IMG/VR virus record: IMGVR_UViG_3300027932_000003
Coordinates: 1 to 34,531 of that record
Length of the DNA stretch: 34,531 nucleotides
Direction: 5' to 3' (one strand)
Source of the DNA: a virus
Below, piece after piece: positions 10,003 to 31,322 of this stretch. Position numbers and translations under genes: made by a program. Each line of letters begins with the position of its first letter. The first letter of the stretch is position 1. Below the pieces are notes generated by a model. It was not told the origin of the DNA. It saw nothing but the letters and a program-made list of their open reading frames with translations, and did not search any database.

Positions 10003-10407
10003 ATGGCAAAAGGAAGAACACCAAGGTCCTATAGCCAAAGGTATGCAAAATGGTCAGCTAAATTTGCATCATTTTCAAATCCTACCGTAGCATCTACAAT
10101 TTTAAGTAATGTTTCGCCAGTTGCACAGCAAAATTTCCAAACTAATGTACCAAAGTTTACTAGTGTAAATGAACAAGTTTCTAGCGTATTGTCAGAATAT
10201 GGAATTACTGGCCCTAACAGGGCGATTTACCAAGGTTTCGGTCTTAAGGTAGCTAGAGCTTTAAATAGGTTGGGAGGAGGGCCAGCACTTGTTAACATGA
10301 TAAATGGACTAAAAGCATATTATATTTCAGCATTTAATGCTAATCCAACTGTTCTAGATGCAGTGACAAATATAATCACCGGTTCGCCAACTGGATATGT
10401 AAGCTAA
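10003..10407 (+). CDS. major capsid (coat) protein, rudivirus type (134 aa)
   Basis: Length and N-terminus (MAKGRTPRSYSQRYAKW...) match my recollection of the 134-aa SIRV coat protein; isolated monocistronic gene with a 235-bp upstream region and a long T-rich tail (10408..10518). Confidence 0.85.
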   Translation: MAKGRTPRSYSQRYAKWSAKFASFSNPTVASTILSNVSPVAQQNFQTNVPKFTSVNEQVSSVLSEYGITGPNRAIYQGFGLKVARALNRLGGGPALVNMINGLKAYYISAFNANPTVLDAVTNIITGSPTGYVS

Positions 10408-10725: not shown

Positions 10726-11733
10726 ATGAAAACCGTAATTTTGACTATGAATTATTCATCTATAAGAAATGTTTCAGAAGATATTGCACAAGTTTTACGA
10801 AAAAATGGTGAAATTGTTACAATTTCAACAAATCCATATTTAATTCCACAATCTGATAAATTAATAATTTTTATGCCATTTCATCCTCCATCTCTAAATC
10901 CATATTTGTATGCATTTAGAGAATTTAAAGGTAAGAAGTATTTTTATACAACTTGTGATGGTTTACCTAATACAAATATTGTAAATCAATATCTATTAGA
11001 AAATATAATATTTATACCAAATTCAAAGTTTACAGCTCAGAATTTACAAGAAGTTGGCTTAAATGTTGAATTGCCAGTTTTCCATGGTATAAATTTTGAA
11101 ATTGTAGAAAAAGCTGAACAATTAGCTATTCAATTGAAACAAAAATTAGATGCTGATTTTCCAAATGTTGTAAAGTTTGGAATTGTTTCAGGTTTAACTA
11201 AAAGAAAAAATATGGATCTTATGATAAGAGTTTTTCAAGAAACAAATACTAAAATTCCAGAATTAGCCAAGAAAATCCATTTCTTTGTAATTTCTCATAA
11301 AGCATTTAAAGATTTTGAAGTTCCTGAAAATGTGCATTTTGTTAGTGAATTTGGACTAAATCCTAGAGAATATATATTTGCATTTTATTCAACTATGGAT
11401 TTTGTAATTGTTCCTTCTGGAACTGAGGGCTTTGGACTTCCAGTTTTAGAAAGCATGGCTATGGGAACTCCAGTAATTCACCAATTAATGCCTCCATTTG
11501 ATGAATTTACATCATGGCAATGGAATTTACTAATTAAATCATCAGAAATTGAAGAATATTACGATAAAACGCATGGGCAAAAATGGAGAATTCATAAATT
11601 TGATATTCATGACATGATAAATGCAATATTAATAGCTTCAGAACTTCAAGATAGAGATGAGAGAAGTCAAAATTTAAGAGAATTAGCAAAAAGATACGAT
11701 ATTAATAATTTATATGTTAGATTTTTAGAGTGA
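10726..11733 (+). CDS. GT-B fold glycosyltransferase (GT4-like) (335 aa)
   Basis: SGTEGFGLPVLESMAMGTPVI contains the E-x7-E motif of retaining GT4 enzymes; immediately downstream of the coat gene region. Confidence 0.8.
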   Translation: MKTVILTMNYSSIRNVSEDIAQVLRKNGEIVTISTNPYLIPQSDKLIIFMPFHPPSLNPYLYAFREFKGKKYFYTTCDGLPNTNIVNQYLLENIIFIPNSKFTAQNLQEVGLNVELPVFHGINFEIVEKAEQLAIQLKQKLDADFPNVVKFGIVSGLTKRKNMDLMIRVFQETNTKIPELAKKIHFFVISHKAFKDFEVPENVHFVSEFGLNPREYIFAFYSTMDFVIVPSGTEGFGLPVLESMAMGTPVIHQLMPPFDEFTSWQWNLLIKSSEIEEYYDKTHGQKWRIHKFDIHDMINAILIASELQDRDERSQNLRELAKRYDINNLYVRFLE

Positions 11734-20828: not shown

Positions 20829-21644
20829 ATGAGCGTTAATTTGTGTCATTATGAGGCAGAAAATATAAGTTATAAAGATTTAGAAAATCTTCAAGGTATG
20901 ATATATTATGAAATAAAATATGATGGTACACATATATGTTTAAAATATGAAAATGAACTAAAAATTAATACTAGAAAAGATATACCTCATGATAAAACAT
21001 TTCAGAATTTGTTTTATCAAGTTCCAAATATTGATGAAATTATAAAATATATAAAAGAACATAACAATTATATAATACATGGGGAACTTATACATAAAAA
21101 GACATCAGCACTACAAATCCATACAAATGAAACTCCAGAATTTATAATTTATGATGTCTTTGACAAAGAGAACAACAGATATTTAAGTCCGCTTGAAGTT
21201 GATAGTGAAATTTACGAATGGTATCCAGAAATTTGTTTAGATTTAGATGATTTACTTGATATTATAACTAAAGAAAAACTTGAGGGCTTAGTAGCTAAAA
21301 TCTATAATCCGAAATTTGCAAATTGTAAAGAAGGCAAAAACTTCAACTTATGCGTTTATAAATACAAACCGTATTTTTCAACTTTAGGAGTAATATTTAA
21401 GCCCGTTAGAAAAGAAATTGATGTTAGACAATTAGCGTTTCTTCTCGGCGAAATAGATAATGATTTAAAGAATAATAAAGATGAATGGTATAATAATCAT
21501 CCAGATTTGCTAAGATTCTTACTAAATAATAAAGATAAAATACTTCAACTTTTGCAAAATAAAAACTTTATACTACAAGTTGAGAAAGAAACACATTTAA
21601 ACATTAAGAAAATTGAAGAATACATTAAAAATTTCAAGAGATAA
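20829..21644 (+). CDS. hypothetical protein (271 aa)
   Basis: ATG ORF; promoter aaataaatttGTCATAtt. Confidence 0.6.
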   Translation: MSVNLCHYEAENISYKDLENLQGMIYYEIKYDGTHICLKYENELKINTRKDIPHDKTFQNLFYQVPNIDEIIKYIKEHNNYIIHGELIHKKTSALQIHTNETPEFIIYDVFDKENNRYLSPLEVDSEIYEWYPEICLDLDDLLDIITKEKLEGLVAKIYNPKFANCKEGKNFNLCVYKYKPYFSTLGVIFKPVRKEIDVRQLAFLLGEIDNDLKNNKDEWYNNHPDLLRFLLNNKDKILQLLQNKNFILQVEKETHLNIKKIEEYIKNFKR

Positions 21645-24456: not shown

Positions 24457-24933
24457 CTATAATTTACAAAATACAAATTCTCTATTATCATCAGTTATAA
24501 AAGTTAGAATTGTTCCATATAATTTTTTCATTAACTCAAAGCGGTTTTCAGTCCAGTCATGAATAGCAATACAATATTGTTTATACTTTTGTAATTCTTC
24601 AATTTTCAGATTCTTTTCACAGCCTTCACAATCCATAACTAAAATGTCAGTGTCAGGATATTGATTTCCAGTCCATTCCCCATTTATCTCAACTTTATCA
24701 CAAATATTAAATTCTTTACAAACTTTTTCCTTAAATCTCTTGTTTAACTCATCACTTTTTTCAAAACCAATTACTTTTTTAGCATTCTTAAGAAGAAAAT
24801 ACAAAGCTGAACTTCCACAATCATTTCCGATTATCGTAATTGTCTTATCTTTTACGTCTAATTTTCCATAAGCTAAATCAAATTCATGCCAATAGCAACA
24901 TTCCAATTTACAAAAATAATCTTTATAATCCAT
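24457..24933 (-). CDS. SAM-dependent methyltransferase, FkbM-like (158 aa)
   Basis: TIIGNDCGSSALYFL ... KKVIGFEKS resembles FkbM-family motif I and the acidic end of beta-2; DILVMDCEGCE further on. Confidence 0.5.
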   Translation of the reverse strand: MDYKDYFCKLECCYWHEFDLAYGKLDVKDKTITIIGNDCGSSALYFLLKNAKKVIGFEKSDELNKRFKEKVCKEFNICDKVEINGEWTGNQYPDTDILVMDCEGCEKNLKIEELQKYKQYCIAIHDWTENRFELMKKLYGTILTFITDDNREFVFCKL

Positions 24934-26014: not shown

Positions 26015-26620
26015 ATGAAAATCTTCACATTTGCAGGGTTTACAAAACATCTAAAGGAATTGGATTTTGATTATGTTGTCTTGGATAAAACTTTTAATGA
26101 TATAACTCCCCAGTTAATCGAAAAATTTAGAGATAAGATAATCTGGAATGAAACAAATAGTGATATAAGAGCCATAAGGATAGCTAAACAATTACTAAAA
26201 ATTCTAGAAATAGCAAAAGATCAAGATGATGACATATTTGCTATAGTAGATAGTGATCTAATTGTTCCAAATTTGAGAAATATTGACCCTAACGATAAAA
26301 TTTTAACTTTGTGCTATTGGCTTTATTACGACTGGGCTAATGAAATTAGACCATTTTGTTCAGGAACAAATTACATTTTTAATAAAAAACATATTGTAAT
26401 TTTAGAAACTGCAATAAATGTTTATTTAGAAAAAGAATATTATAAAGAATTTTCAGTGGATATATTTCTACATGACCATATTTTGCATATAAACGTCTTG
26501 AAGTTAGGAACTATCCATTATGTAAAAACTCCAGAGGGAGAGAAAAAAATGGAATTTACATTTGAAAATATAAATCAAGTGTTTAAACATATTCCAGAAT
26601 TTGTTTTAATATCTTGGTGA
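26015..26620 (+). CDS. hypothetical protein with DxD-like motif (201 aa)
   Basis: ATG ORF; promoter tatttGTCATAacttgag; IVDSDLIV could be a DxD nucleotide-sugar motif (weak). Confidence 0.5.
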   Translation: MKIFTFAGFTKHLKELDFDYVVLDKTFNDITPQLIEKFRDKIIWNETNSDIRAIRIAKQLLKILEIAKDQDDDIFAIVDSDLIVPNLRNIDPNDKILTLCYWLYYDWANEIRPFCSGTNYIFNKKHIVILETAINVYLEKEYYKEFSVDIFLHDHILHINVLKLGTIHYVKTPEGEKKMEFTFENINQVFKHIPEFVLISW

Positions 26621-26729
26621 GGTCAAATATGGAGTTCTTTAATTCAGAATTGAGACCGAACCAGTCCAAACTTAAAGTTAAAGACATTAAAATGTCATTT
26701 TTTAAATTTTGAATTAAGGACGTGGTAAA

Positions 26730-27812
26730 ATGAGTGGTGATATTTTATTGCAAACTCCAATTTATTACGTTTATCCACAACATCATGATGTTTCTTTTAA
26801 GTTTGTAGCAAAAGAACATATAAAAATGCTAAAAGAAAAATATACAGTTTACGAAATTCCTGCTTTATCATTTTATCAATTTACTCCTTTCAAATATCCA
26901 ATTTCAATTATTCATCCATTCTTTTATTCAATGTGGCATTGGGGTAACGTTGAATTTTCATTCTTTGAACAATATAGATCTAAAGTTAGTCAAATAATAG
27001 GAGTTGAAGTAGCTGACAGTGATAGAATTTCAGAAAAATTTATAGATTATGCAAATAATTATGCAGATAGACTAATTGGAAATTCTGAATGGACATTAAA
27101 CGCTTTTAAAAATTCTGGACTAAAAATTCCAATTTTTAAAGTTGTTCATAATTTTAATGAGAGATTATTGGCGAAAAATGATGAATTAAAAGTTGATGAA
27201 CAAGTTAAATATATTGAAAAAGTAAAGAAAGAGAAAAATATAAAACTAGTAATGATATCGCTTTGGCATTCTGATTACAGAAAAGGAGCTGATTTATTTC
27301 ACGTAATTGTAAAAGAAATACAAAAAGAAAGAGATGATATTTATTTTCTAGTCAAATCAGGCGGGCCGAGGACAGATTTTCAAGACCTCAAAATGTTTAA
27401 CCTAACAGGAAATACAGATTTTGATAATATCGTAAAAATGTATAGAATTTCTGACTTGTATTTACTAACTTCAAGAGGCGGAAGTTTTGAATTAAACGGT
27501 TTAGAAGCTTTTGTATCAAAAATTCCAGTTGTAGCAACTAAAGGAGGAGCATGGCAAGAGTATTTTCCTTCACAATTGAAAGATTTATTAATTGATAGTT
27601 GTGATTATCCAACAGTTTTACCAGGAAATCCAATTCATATAGGAAAAGGAGTGGAAATGTGCATAAATGACGCTATAGATAAAATATTAGAAGTTTTAGA
27701 TAAATTAGATGAATATAAGGCAAAAATTGAGGAGAACTATAATTTTTGGCTAGAAAATTTTAGTTATGAAACTGTAAAAAAACAATTGTTTAACACATTA
27801 GAAAAATCTTAA
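26730..27812 (+). CDS. putative GT-B glycosyltransferase (360 aa)
   Basis: TSRGGSFELNGLEAFVSKIPVVAT resembles the C-terminal sugar-donor region of GT4 enzymes; aaggacgtggt upstream of the ATG. Confidence 0.55.
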   Translation: MSGDILLQTPIYYVYPQHHDVSFKFVAKEHIKMLKEKYTVYEIPALSFYQFTPFKYPISIIHPFFYSMWHWGNVEFSFFEQYRSKVSQIIGVEVADSDRISEKFIDYANNYADRLIGNSEWTLNAFKNSGLKIPIFKVVHNFNERLLAKNDELKVDEQVKYIEKVKKEKNIKLVMISLWHSDYRKGADLFHVIVKEIQKERDDIYFLVKSGGPRTDFQDLKMFNLTGNTDFDNIVKMYRISDLYLLTSRGGSFELNGLEAFVSKIPVVATKGGAWQEYFPSQLKDLLIDSCDYPTVLPGNPIHIGKGVEMCINDAIDKILEVLDKLDEYKAKIEENYNFWLENFSYETVKKQLFNTLEKS

Positions 27813-27838
27813 ATTGGTCATAAAACTCAAACTGTAAC

Positions 27839-29035
27839 ATGGAATTTAAAAGAAAAAGTTCAGGCATAATAAAAAGTTTTAGCTCATTAGACATTTTTTC
27901 TATAAACCTACTTTACATGGGAATTTTAAGCGGTATAAGTTATCCTCTTTTTGTCTCAAGTCTTCTAAAATCTGTAAATTTACTATTTGCAATTTTGATA
28001 GGTGCAATTTTTGGAATTCCGTTACTTGCAATGTATTATTTACTGACTAAAAAAATTCCGCTTAATGGAGGAGATTATGCGTACATTAGATCTTCATTTT
28101 CTCCAAAATTCTATACAGTTTTTGGAATTTCGCTCTGGTTAATTTATGTATTTTCAGCACCAGTTTTATCAAACCTTGTATTGTTAAATTTCAATATTCC
28201 AATATTCGATAAGTTTTTAATTTCAGAACTATTACTTGGGACTGCGTTACTTAGTGTTAGCAAAAAAACAATTTATGCTTATATTGTTGACGCTATCGCA
28301 ATTTTACAAATAATCGTTTCGCTAATCTTGCCAATTTCAAGTTTCCATTTTCAAATTCAAAATTTTACAATATCCAATACTCTATTATCGGCATTATTAT
28401 TTGATTTATCTATGTTTTTATTTCTAAATGCAATTAGTTACATAGCAGGAGAAACAAAAAACATAAACAAAAATGCGAAAATCGGATATTTTGTAAGTTA
28501 TTTAGTAGTTACAATTTTAGCAGTATTGGACAGTTATTCAAATCTAAATATATTATTTCTACTAATGCCGATATGGTTTATGAGTTATATTTTTGTTACT
28601 TCTATGATTCAGAGTAGACTAGTTCAAAATTTAGCATTTGATAAAATCTTACCTGAAAAATTTGCAAAAATAACGCCTAATGCTTTACTGTTAATCTTTA
28701 TCGCTGATACAATTACAAACGTTTTAGAAAATCTTCTAAATTTTACAATTTCATTTGGTCTTGATGGCCTGTTATTTATTTTCTGGAACTTTATAATTGT
28801 TAGTTTTGCATTTCTGAAATTGACAAATAAAAAACTATTATTTTCAATAGTAATGATTAGTCTAATTTTACAGATCTTCTTATTCTTTTATTTAGGATTA
28901 CAAAATAGCGTATTTTATAATTTTGTAATTGAGGGAAACATACTATATACAATATTAAGAATATTGATAATGCCAATTGTTGGAGGAATTATTTACTTAT
29001 TGAGGAGAAAAGTGATAAATGTTGAATTAAAATGA
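27839..29035 (+). CDS. polytopic membrane protein, possible flippase/transporter (398 aa)
   Basis: At least 10 hydrophobic segments by eye; sits between a glycosyltransferase gene and 29032..29934, overlapping the latter by 4 nt. Confidence 0.6.
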   Translation: MEFKRKSSGIIKSFSSLDIFSINLLYMGILSGISYPLFVSSLLKSVNLLFAILIGAIFGIPLLAMYYLLTKKIPLNGGDYAYIRSSFSPKFYTVFGISLWLIYVFSAPVLSNLVLLNFNIPIFDKFLISELLLGTALLSVSKKTIYAYIVDAIAILQIIVSLILPISSFHFQIQNFTISNTLLSALLFDLSMFLFLNAISYIAGETKNINKNAKIGYFVSYLVVTILAVLDSYSNLNILFLLMPIWFMSYIFVTSMIQSRLVQNLAFDKILPEKFAKITPNALLLIFIADTITNVLENLLNFTISFGLDGLLFIFWNFIIVSFAFLKLTNKKLLFSIVMISLILQIFLFFYLGLQNSVFYNFVIEGNILYTILRILIMPIVGGIIYLLRRKVINVELK

Positions 29036-29934
29036 AATTGATTTTTGGATTAAGTTCAACATTATCATATATTTTAAAAACAAATTTTCCAATTTTAGTT
29101 AATCAACTAAGATTTAAAAGAAAAACATGGAAAAATGAAACATGGATTGATAGTGGCGGATATCAAATTATAATGCATAATCTAAAAATTTCTGTAAATG
29201 ATGTCTTGCAAAAGTATAAAAGTGTTAATGCTTACGCATTTTTTTCGCTTGATATTCCTAGCGTTTTTTCGCCAATTGATAAACGAAACTTTGAATATTT
29301 CGAATATCTATATACGAAAATTGAGTATATAGAAAAGATTATACCAGTTTTACATATTTATTCACTTCAAGATATAGATGAAGCAATTGATTTTTATAAA
29401 CAATACAGTTATTATTTTGCAATTGGTGGTATAATGACTTCTAGCAAAATGAAAGTTTTACAATATACATTTCCATGGGTTTATTATATAAAAAGAAAAG
29501 TTCCATATCTCCATATTTTAGGCATGTCATCTCCATATTTTTTACAAATTTTTAATAATATGCAAAGCATGGATACCGCAATTTGTTCAACAATTTCAAC
29601 ATTTAAAGAAATAATTTGGTTTGATAGTTCTAGGAGATATGTTGGAAATATGAAAACAAAAAGGGAAAGATATAAAATTACAAAAGAAGAAAAAGAACAA
29701 TTATTTGAATTTTTAGACAAACATAACTTTCAATTTAACTATGATTTAAGTAATAGAAATATTCTAGAACTTATAAATGCATATATGTTATTATATAATA
29801 ATTGGAAAATTAAGAATAAATATACAGAATATGCAGAAAAACTTAGAAAAATGGGACTAGATAGTTTGACAAGTGAGTTAATTAGAAATTATAAAATTGC
29901 AAATGAAATATTAAAACAGAAAAGAGAAAAATAG
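29032..29934 (+). CDS. hypothetical protein (300 aa)
   Basis: ATG ORF translationally coupled to the membrane protein gene. Confidence 0.55.
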   Translation: MKLIFGLSSTLSYILKTNFPILVNQLRFKRKTWKNETWIDSGGYQIIMHNLKISVNDVLQKYKSVNAYAFFSLDIPSVFSPIDKRNFEYFEYLYTKIEYIEKIIPVLHIYSLQDIDEAIDFYKQYSYYFAIGGIMTSSKMKVLQYTFPWVYYIKRKVPYLHILGMSSPYFLQIFNNMQSMDTAICSTISTFKEIIWFDSSRRYVGNMKTKRERYKITKEEKEQLFEFLDKHNFQFNYDLSNRNILELINAYMLLYNNWKIKNKYTEYAEKLRKMGLDSLTSELIRNYKIANEILKQKREK

Positions 29935-30513: not shown

Positions 30514-31236
30514 TCAATCTGTTTTATTTTTCCTTGGTCTTGGATGTGTAATTAAATAATATTTATTTCCGCTTAACATAACCGAATTTTCACCATGATC
30601 TGGAGATTTAATAACAAATACAGTAGCGTCTTGTGGATGTACTAAAAACGTAGAACCAGGTGTTGAAAATAAATCAGTAGCTAATACAGTATTTGAAAAT
30701 TGTATTTCATGATTATAAATTGTTAAACTACTTACATGATTGAGACTAAGATTTAATTCACCATTTGGCGGTGGAACTTCATAAATTTCTAGATTTCCTT
30801 GATTATATGTCAAATGAAATTCGTATAATTGACCTTTTATGAAATAATCATAAACTTCTATTGAATAATTGCTATAAGAAATTAATAATTCTTTTGAACT
30901 AAGATTTAAAAGTTCTAGTTCTTTTAATATAATGTTTTTCATATCTTCTAAACTTCTTGTAATTTTATTTCTTCTATAGACAGATATTATTGGCGATACT
31001 GGCGTATAATATATTCCTTTTACTTCATCCAATTGATCATCAATATTTCTAAAACATCCATTAAATGTCATACCGCTTCTTGAAACATATTTAGAACAAT
31101 TAATAAAATGATTAGATATTAACGAAATTTTGGTAACTTGACCATTTGTATGTTTCAACATAAAAACGATTGGCAAATATTTAATTTGTTTTAAAATTTT
31201 AACTTCATATTTTTTAACTTGATCTTCTTGAGACAT
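30514..31236 (-). CDS. hypothetical protein (about 240 aa)
   Basis: ORF track start 31248 is GTG; ATG 31236 is preceded by aggtga and by tttaaatttGTCATAtagc. Confidence 0.55.
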   Translation of the reverse strand: MSQEDQVKKYEVKILKQIKYLPIVFMLKHTNGQVTKISLISNHFINCSKYVSRSGMTFNGCFRNIDDQLDEVKGIYYTPVSPIISVYRRNKITRSLEDMKNIILKELELLNLSSKELLISYSNYSIEVYDYFIKGQLYEFHLTYNQGNLEIYEVPPPNGELNLSLNHVSSLTIYNHEIQFSNTVLATDLFSTPGSTFLVHPQDATVFVIKSPDHGENSVMLSGNKYYLITHPRPRKNKTD

Positions 31237-31322
31237 ACGATCTATCACCTGTAAAATATCATATGCTATATGACAAATTTAAAGCATTCGAAAAGTCTCG
31301 ATTTAGAAAAATATAAAAAAAA

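Follow-up and report, generated by a model that had tools for sequence, protein, structure and literature searches.

The window analysed here is the whole of a 34,531-nucleotide (nt) stretch of viral DNA, IMG/VR virus record IMGVR_UViG_3300027932_000003, and this analysis concerns four + strand genes at positions 26015-29934, including a permease gene coupled to a gene for a DpdA-like enzyme. The virus is a Sulfolobus islandicus rod-shaped virus (SIRV) of the family Rudiviridae. Because the nucleotide and protein matches are to the SIRVs and their relatives, the 34.5-kb window is taken to be a near-complete, usarudivirus-like genome. The four-gene region is 82-87% identical in nucleotide sequence to SIRV4-11 and to Yellowstone isolates across 97-100% of its length, and about 72% identical to SIRV1, SIRV2 and SIRV3, in the second half of the region only. 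The stretch holds orthologs of long-known SIRV genes, and the virus is one more member of a well-sampled rudivirus group. The G+C content is 22-31% along the window and about 25% overall; at this composition stop codons are frequent, so open reading frames (ORFs) of 200-400 amino acids (aa) are not expected by chance. The genes of the region, with two features of their junctions, are the following.

26015..26620, + strand: ORF201, 201 aa, predicted GT-A-fold (nucleotide-diphospho-sugar transferase fold) protein with an invariant D79-S80-D81; homolog of SIRV2 ORF176/gp43
26730..27812, + strand: ORF360, 360 aa, predicted glycosyltransferase of the GT-B/GT4 type; homolog of SIRV2 ORF356/gp44
27813..27838, no strand: spacer of 26 nt between the glycosyltransferase and permease genes, the boundary of the two modules
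27839..29035, + strand: ORF398, 398 aa, predicted APC-superfamily secondary permease with about 12 transmembrane segments, shorter than its cellular homologs
29032..29035, + strand: ATGA shared by the stop codon of the permease gene and the start codon of the DpdA-like gene, read from the sequence
29032..29934, + strand: ORF300, 300 aa, predicted guanine transglycosylase of the phage DpdA type, a minimal TGT-fold enzyme without a zinc site; its homologs include SIRV2 ORF310/gp13 and STSV2_15

Dozens of full-length homologs exist for each of the four ORFs, and ratios of nonsynonymous to synonymous substitution (dN/dS) lie between 0.09 and 0.30 in comparisons with SIRV4, SIRV5, a metagenomic relative and SIRV2 (three to four relatives per gene). 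All four are therefore real, conserved genes under purifying selection, in agreement with an earlier note on this DNA, which had read the same four + strand ORFs as a DxD protein, a GT-B glycosyltransferase, a polytopic membrane protein and a translationally coupled 300-aa partner; the ATGA at 29032-29035 bears out the remark on coupling. The annotation of relatives already names ORF360 a glycosyltransferase, ORF398 an amino-acid permease and ORF300 a queuine tRNA-ribosyltransferase, while the homologs of ORF201 are called only 'hypothetical protein' in the records seen. The note had also joined the four genes into one small unit for glycan synthesis and export, and this part does not hold. 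The 3.9-kb stretch is instead made up of two independent two-gene rudiviral modules, at 26015-27812 and 27839-29934, and the identities of the genes and this architecture are held with high confidence.

ORF300 is the second gene of the second module. As a single sequence it returns nothing in Pfam (E ≤ 1), NCBIfam or the PDB (phmmer), and specifically no match at E ≤ 1 to the Pfam TGT family (PF01702) or to the NCBIfam TgtA and DpdA models. For a 30%-identical cellular homolog (P0091) the DpdA model gives 2.5e-4 and the TgtA model 3.9e-4, and both scores fall far short of the cutoffs. ORF300 does match PHROG 887, 'queuine tRNA-ribosyltransferase', at 8.8e-65, and the DpdA of phage 9g (gp03) belongs to the same PHROG (2e-98). 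In an alignment of 17 homologs with 25-84% identity, the invariant residues are D40-S41-G42-G43, D74, H108, G132, H161, G164 and D181, and no cysteine is conserved. A profile of the family matches Pyrococcus ArcTGT (1iq8) with an expectation value of 3.4e-5, and places D40, D74 and D181 on D95, D130 and D249 of that enzyme; in DpdA, D95, D130 and D256 act as general acid/base, in base recognition and as nucleophile, and the roles are the same in TGT. The AlphaFold2 model has a mean confidence (pLDDT) of 92 and is predicted to form the TIM barrel of the TGT fold, and its top Foldseek matches are TGT structures only. When the rudiviral family profile was compared with 9g DpdA by hhalign, a probability of 94.3% (E 9.7e-8) was obtained over 205 columns, which include the helical region after the nucleophile. 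On sequence and predicted structure, ORF300 is best described as a phage-type DpdA of minimal size, with the TGT fold and all three catalytic aspartates but no zinc site.

The resemblance to phage DpdA of the DpdA1 type (9g gp03 and CAjan DpdA) extends from the shared PHROG to the size (300 versus 317 aa) and to a DSGG[YF] motif with three aspartates, and in both ORF300 and 9g DpdA the aligned C-terminal part has no cysteine-rich zinc motif. However, identity to 9g DpdA is only about 18%; the host of the present virus is a crenarchaeon living at about 80 °C and low pH, unlike those of phages 9g and CAjan; and a coupling to an APC permease, as in ORF300, was not found reported for phage DpdA. 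Phage 9g also carries FolE, QueD, QueE and an amidotransferase next to dpdA, whereas the window virus has no genes for preQ0 or archaeosine (G+) synthesis: none of the preQ0-pathway families (QueC, QueD, QueE, QueF and FolE) was found in the 36 other ORFs of the window. Since it has no preQ0 genes of its own, the virus is placed in the published 'DpdA-only' group; phage-type DpdA does not strictly require such genes in the same virus. Twelve Ligamenvirales are listed among the viruses with a DpdA homolog and/or a pathway gene (Hutinet 2019, PMC6884629). Compared with ArcTGT (1iq8) and bacterial DpdA (7ui4), ORF300 has no CxCxxC...H site, no C1, C2 or PUA domains and no DpdA Ins8, and, unlike in those enzymes, only 39 residues precede its first catalytic aspartate.

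The closest homolog with an experimental context is STSV2_15 (STSV1 ORF18), from the Sulfolobus spindle-shaped viruses of the Bicaudaviridae, which is 37% identical to ORF300 over 90% of its length; no other gene in the part of STSV2 that was examined is annotated as belonging to the TGT family. Both STSV2 and the window virus infect Sulfolobales, and STSV2 DNA contains 7-carboxy-7-deazaguanine (dCDG) (PMC10516641). The partners differ: the STSV2 enzyme goes with STSV2_16, a protein with an ArcS core, and a permease homolog is lacking in that virus, while the rudiviral gene is paired with a permease and there is no ArcS.

A different target was considered for ORF300, in which it would act on host tRNA and install a base imported by the permease, perhaps in the wobble position or in the tRNA core, and so adapt translation to the very AT-rich viral genome, in a manner comparable with eukaryotic queuine salvage. 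The RefSeq name of its relatives, 'queuine tRNA-ribosyltransferase', the viral G+C content of 25% and the established logic of transporter plus TGT in queuosine salvage would all suit such a role. On the other hand, at 300 aa versus 577-582 aa the protein lacks parts with which known tRNA enzymes bind their substrate, namely the C-terminal C1, C2 and PUA domains of ArcTGT and the zinc subdomain, profiles group it with phage DpdA (PHROG 887; 94% by hhalign) and not with Pfam TGT or NCBIfam TgtA, and the STSV2 homolog accompanies a modification of DNA. Action on tRNA is therefore considered quite unlikely.

Some members of the ORF300 family are shortened or lie in other settings. The TGT-like gene of SIRV7 is annotated as 215 aa, and on a metagenomic contig of 3 kb the gene is split into pieces of 189 and 166 aa (P0080, P0081, P0086), which suggests occasional natural inactivation. 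Two distant homologs lie outside recognizable rudiviruses. P0091 (L004, 6001-6978) is found on a 213-kb contig beside a ribonucleotide reductase gene and a 633-aa radical-SAM gene, and P0089 (L006, 1725-2603) is found beside genes for CedA1 (DNA import) and an Sso7d-type protein.

The membrane protein of the earlier note is indeed polytopic, with about 12 hydrophobic segments in ORF398, but the suggestion that it could be a flippase is not supported. Of the Pfam families, AA_permease_2 alone is matched at E ≤ 1 (1.6e-5; its 24.5 bits narrowly miss the cutoff of 27); at the same threshold no Wzx/MOP, MurJ or GtrA-type family was detected in Pfam, and there is no NCBIfam match. ORF398 matches PHROG 8289 at 2.8e-200. 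An exhaustive profile search of 1.84e9 representative proteins recovered 66 relatives, which were of the permease type only. The closest of these are the permeases of SBRV1, ARV2/SSRV1 and SRV, followed by proteins of 466-554 aa, and those of the latter that were tested (profile expectation values of 1e-47 to 1e-11) match AA_permease_2 with 33-64 bits, nearly all above the cutoff. One of them, P0296, is encoded in Sulfolobaceae genomes, and the nearest non-viral relatives overall are Sulfolobaceae APC permeases that pass the Pfam cutoff. ORF398 aligns with its cellular relatives from end to end, without several loops and the C-terminal ...EIPPE tail. The segments PLNGGDYAY and AGETKN are invariant in the viral homologs and align with the cellular relatives; they correspond to the APC signature segments P-x-x-GG-x-Y-x-Y and G-E-x-K-N. 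A PDB search with the family profile gave GkApcT only, at a non-significant expectation value (E 0.36). Judging from these matches, ORF398 is probably a shortened APC-superfamily permease of Sulfolobaceae origin. It is also the most constrained of the four genes, with dN/dS of 0.09-0.16, and about 0.09-0.10 against three usarudiviral relatives.

A role as flippase or sugar exporter was rejected, as no such family is found in Pfam or NCBIfam, and also because the protein appears to be an importer coupled to a base-exchange-type enzyme, in a unit that is separate from the glycosyltransferase pair. This separation is best seen in the gene order of relatives. In about 30 ice- and usarudiviral loci the distance from the permease gene to the TGT-like gene is -1 to +11 nt, with no insertions between the two. 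Across the same loci the distance from the glycosyltransferase gene to the permease gene runs from 29 to 1235 nt, and that from the ORF201 homolog to the glycosyltransferase gene from -8 to +154 nt. The glycosyltransferase-permease junction of the window is 26 nt (29 nt in the tblastn coordinates that were used for relatives); it measures 430-1235 nt in many relatives (L002, L016, L025, L027, L030 and L034 were compared), and in some an extra small ORF is annotated there. A variable junction on one side and a closed permease-DpdA junction on the other indicate that the module boundary is an insertion hot spot, and that the permease/DpdA pair behaves as one mobile cassette.

The pair has also changed its place. 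In Icerudivirus the permease and then the DpdA-like gene occupy the left arm, and in Usarudivirus they follow the glycosyltransferase gene; in SIRV1-3 about 20 kb separate the two gene pairs. Directly after the glycosyltransferase pair of SIRV2 (27.8-29.5 kb) come two AcrID1 anti-CRISPR genes and no transporter; ORF399 (permease) and ORF310 (TGT-like) occupy 6.4-8.6 kb of that genome, on the opposite strand and next to a further gene of the AcrID1 family. The SRV genes converge, with an overlap of 23 nt, and have the coat gene as a neighbour. A reversed order is seen in two divergent metagenomic contigs (L061 and L063), with a 302-aa TGT-like gene preceding a 483-aa permease gene and a 1-nt overlap between them; here the TGT-like proteins are 37-39% identical to that of the window and the permease is 31% identical (E 4e-43).

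These arrangements bear directly on the proposal that all four genes form a single unit for glycan synthesis and export, in which the membrane protein would flip a lipid-linked sugar with the assistance of the 300-aa partner. Two true glycosyltransferases are present, the four genes of the window are co-directional and tightly spaced, and in ARV2/SSRV1 the permease gene lies beside the glycosyltransferase pair, in convergent orientation. Against this, the family of the membrane protein is of the APC fold and not of a flippase type, the partner is a TGT/DpdA enzyme unrelated to glycans, the permease/DpdA pair moves independently of the glycosyltransferase pair to sites 20 kb away or beside the coat gene, the junction between the pairs is variable and takes insertions, and the SIRV2 glycosyltransferase pair leads straight into anti-CRISPR genes. 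A single glycan unit is thus very improbable.

In the hoswirudiviruses a 207-aa ORF is present 9 nt downstream of the permease gene (SSRV1 ORF28-207, L008 5475-6098; ARV2 gp33, L007 5764-6387). It has homologs of 28-32% identity in ATV (ORF192) and SMV3, with invariant D37, D71, H97, WYLG and D166. The possibility that it is a degenerate TGT-like protein, raised by motifs that appear colinear by eye, found no support in hhalign comparisons (probability below 1% with a single sequence and with a four-sequence profile that included ATV and SMV3). This ORF has no match in the PDB, Pfam or NCBIfam and is not ArcS-like.

For the permease/DpdA module, the following mechanism is proposed. ORF300 would exchange guanine for a 7-deazaguanine-type base by the double-displacement mechanism of TGT and DpdA, most probably in viral DNA, and ORF398 would take up this base, or one of its precursors, from the cell's surroundings. 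The module as a whole would be accessory, probably with an anti-defence function, and not essential. Base exchange into DNA by ORF300 is marginally favoured, while it is doubtful that the permease feeds this reaction. The overall explanation, in which a glycosylation module lies next to a permease that supplies a DpdA-type base exchange, is tentative and leans slightly towards doubt. In its most specific form, namely that the filamentous Ligamenvirales captured a host APC permease, which became dedicated to importing a non-canonical base such as a 7-deazapurine, and that the coupled zinc-less DpdA writes this base into the viral genome, the proposal is on the unlikely side.

Several published observations are consistent with this mechanism. 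Bases of the preQ0 type enter DNA through the base exchange that DpdA carries out, and in phage CAjan the enzyme is required for the insertion of 7-deazaguanine (PMC6884629). For 'DpdA-only' phages, the use of host preQ0 or the uptake of exogenous precursors has been proposed, and some phages encode the preQ0 transporter YhhQ (PMC6884629). Starting from transporter genes that cluster with TGT genes, importers of preQ0/preQ1 have been identified and confirmed experimentally in three superfamilies unrelated to one another (PMC11130926), and members of the QPTR/YhhQ, QrtT/QueT, preQ0/preQ1-transporting MFS, ureide-permease and HlyIII families all have the coupling of a transporter gene to a TGT-family gene that is seen in the rudiviral pair (PMC11130926). 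An accessory role would agree with the spontaneous loss of gp13-gp14 during passage of SIRV2 in CRISPR-null hosts, which indicates that these genes are dispensable in culture (PMC6315595), and with the anti-CRISPR genes that surround the pair in SIRV2. In the window, the glycosyltransferase pair flanks the cassette on one side, and on the other there is a gene of the accessory/anti-defence region downstream of it:

30514..31248, - strand: homolog of SIRV2 gp48 (ORF249), 40% identity, E 3e-50

SIRV2 gp48 is presented as an anti-CRISPR in a preprint (bioRxiv 10.1101/2024.04.02.587611). The cassette of the window borders a region of the anti-defence type, and in SIRV2 the corresponding place after the glycosyltransferase gene is taken by the two AcrID1 genes.

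Several points weigh against the proposed mechanism. The single cysteine of ORF300 is not conserved, and the structural zinc site that is conserved in TGTs and bacterial DpdA is absent; moreover, the fold alone fits DNA, tRNA or protein targets equally well. The APC superfamily (TC 2.A.3) is known for the transport of amino acids, polyamines and organocations. In contrast to the coupled transporters listed above, the rudiviral permease falls in the APC superfamily (AA_permease_2), which does not figure among the known families of 7-deazapurine transporters, whether validated or listed as candidates (PMC11130926), and its cellular relatives are not linked to TGT genes. The only tested relative, STSV2, has a very low dCDG content of 0.04% of G (PMC10516641). 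No report of rudiviral DNA modification was found in the literature searched, nor was any that links the rudiviral permease and the TGT-like gene as one functional unit. The tRNA of at least one Sulfolobales host lineage, Sulfolobus acidocaldarius, contains archaeosine (G+15) (PMC7668247), and since this organism makes archaeosine, and hence preQ0, import may be unnecessary. Finally, the two genes do not always travel together. They are both present but about 5 kb apart in SBRV1; the TGT-like gene is undetectable in ARV2 and SSRV1, which have the permease; and no permease homolog was found in STSV1/2 and several metagenomic contigs, which have the TGT-like gene.

In an alternative reading, the genes of the second module would be independent of each other, the permease being a host-derived importer of amino acids or polyamines that raises the nutrient supply of the infected cell and the DpdA-like enzyme using host preQ0, with their adjacency arising from shared regulation or from joint horizontal transfer in a compact genome. 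The AA_permease_2/APC family of ORF398, the occurrence of each viral gene without the other (ARV2/SSRV1 and STSV1/2) and the capacity of a host with archaeosine in its tRNA to supply preQ0 are all in favour of this alternative, as are the cellular permease loci. The closest non-viral permeases stand alone in varied Sulfolobaceae chromosomal contexts: a TGT-like neighbour was found at none of six Sulfolobaceae-type genome loci and none of 80 metagenome loci, and no neighbourhood of any kind was conserved across these loci. As a clue to the substrate the cellular loci are therefore uninformative, and they speak mildly against a role in 7-deazapurine transport in cells. However, the adjacency of the viral genes survives at least three rearrangements, including the reversed order with a start/stop overlap at 31-39% protein identity; no insertion between them has been seen, whereas insertions are frequent at the junction next door; and genes with such a start/stop overlap should be expressed together, in a fixed ratio. 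Independence of the two genes is thus, in its turn, doubtful.

What is added here to the existing annotation is a correction of the flippase and export reading, the assignment of a GT-A fold to a conserved rudiviral 'hypothetical protein', and comparative evidence for a unit of permease and DpdA-like enzyme that has been kept through three gene arrangements and down to about 31-39% protein identity. Should the permease indeed feed base exchange, this would address both the substrate source of 'DpdA-only' viruses and the chemical masking of DNA by crenarchaeal viruses. ORF398 would then be the first virus-encoded secondary transporter devoted to DNA hypermodification, and no 7-deazapurine transporter would precede it in archaea or in the APC superfamily. 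It might also provide an answer to the question of where Sulfolobales viruses whose host lacks the pathway obtain 7-deazaguanine (PMC10516641), yet STSV2, the virus behind that question, has no permease homolog. SIRV2 is well suited to testing, as a genetic toolbox exists and a natural gp10-gp14 deletion mutant lacks exactly this pair.

The first module consists of ORF201 and ORF360, which are 69% identical to SIRV2 ORF176/gp43 and 75% identical to SIRV2 ORF356/gp44, respectively. The earlier note's GT-B enzyme was correctly identified: ORF360 matches Pfam Glyco_trans_1_4 (1e-9; 39.3 bits, cutoff 27) and Glycos_transf_1 (2e-7; 31.2 bits, gathering cutoff 26.4), and over its full length PHROG 2170, 'glycosyltransferase', at 1.6e-110. 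The segment resembling E-x7-E is shortened (FELNGLE), as judged by eye. On these matches ORF360 is assigned as a probable GT-B/GT4-type glycosyltransferase. The DxD of the other protein was equally well observed, as D79-S80-D81 is invariant in 11 homologs and directly follows a predicted strand (74-79). In Pfam, then, the glycosyltransferase similarity looked for by the note is found for ORF360 and transporter similarity, of the APC kind and not that of a flippase, for ORF398, but ORF201 shows neither.

ORF201 has no Pfam or NCBIfam family at E ≤ 0.1, and its sole family match is PHROG 5113, of unknown function. Its AlphaFold2 model, built with 11 homologs, has a pLDDT of 84.7, and the range of 64.7-84.7 over five models calls for some caution. 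The model shows a single Rossmann-like alpha/beta/alpha nucleotide-sugar-binding domain as in GT-A proteins, and D79-S80-D81 lies where a core beta-strand ends, as the DxD motif does in GT-A enzymes. ORF201 is accordingly described as a predicted GT-A-fold enzyme, an assignment that rests on one predicted structure and of which no mention was found, for this family, in the literature searched. It is unlikely, though compatible with the fold, that ORF201 is instead a nucleotidyltransferase resembling MobA, IspD or GlmU which makes an activated donor for the GT-B enzyme.

The two genes of the module are separated by 109 nt in the window (26621-26729), and in several relatives there is no spacer, the genes abutting or overlapping by 2 to 8 nt (-8 to -2 nt). 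Within this spacer a TTTTTAAA box is located about 30 nt upstream of the start of ORF360. The pair is conserved in all rudiviral lineages compared (SIRV1-11, ARV2 and SSRV1). In relatives it adjoins a methyltransferase gene and large genes annotated as minor structural proteins, and a gene for an S-adenosylmethionine (SAM) methyltransferase is next to the pair in ARV2 and SSRV1 as well. Three further genes of the window belong to this context.

24457..24933, - strand: 158-aa gene, a SAM-dependent methyltransferase in relatives; syntenic with SIRV4 gp39 and SIRV2 ORF158a, in a block of methyltransferase, ORF309, ORF201 and glycosyltransferase
10003-10407: coat gene, Sulf_coat_C at 1.2e-75 among the window ORFs
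10726..11733, + strand: second GT4-type glycosyltransferase, coat-adjacent, Glycos_transf_1 at 8.2e-12

The 158-aa protein of the window has no Pfam match of its own. The coat-adjacent GT4-like enzyme, which the earlier note had grouped with the four genes, is confirmed as such by its Pfam match and its position after the coat gene, and the synteny of the coat gene with this glycosyltransferase (MCP/GT335) is conserved in SRV and SBRV1. SIRV2 ORF176/gp43 and ORF356/gp44 and the coat-adjacent ORF335 represent the core rudiviral glycosyltransferase genes, and A197 of STIV is a GT-A enzyme of an archaeal virus. Glycosylated capsid proteins and encoded glycosyltransferases are common among archaeal viruses, and the likely role predicted for the first module is the glycosylation of virion proteins in the cytoplasm. 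ORF201 and ORF360 would use host nucleotide-sugars there, with virion or other viral proteins as acceptors, and for such a reaction no membrane flippase is required.

Two further genes were noted in the course of the comparison. A 271-aa ORF at 20829-21644 (+ strand) has Pfam matches to RNA_ligase (1.9e-11) and to the adenylation domain of ATP-dependent DNA ligases (1.1e-6), and this ligase-like nucleotidyltransferase is situated inside the structural gene block, between structural-type genes of 1058 aa and 582 aa (DUF2341). In SBRV1, ORF23-270 (L010, 11621-12433), just after the coat-adjacent glycosyltransferase, encodes a protein of the PAPS-reductase/PP-loop ATPase family, with a match to PAPS_reduct (3.5e-10) in its first 126 aa; the same superfamily also contains QueC.

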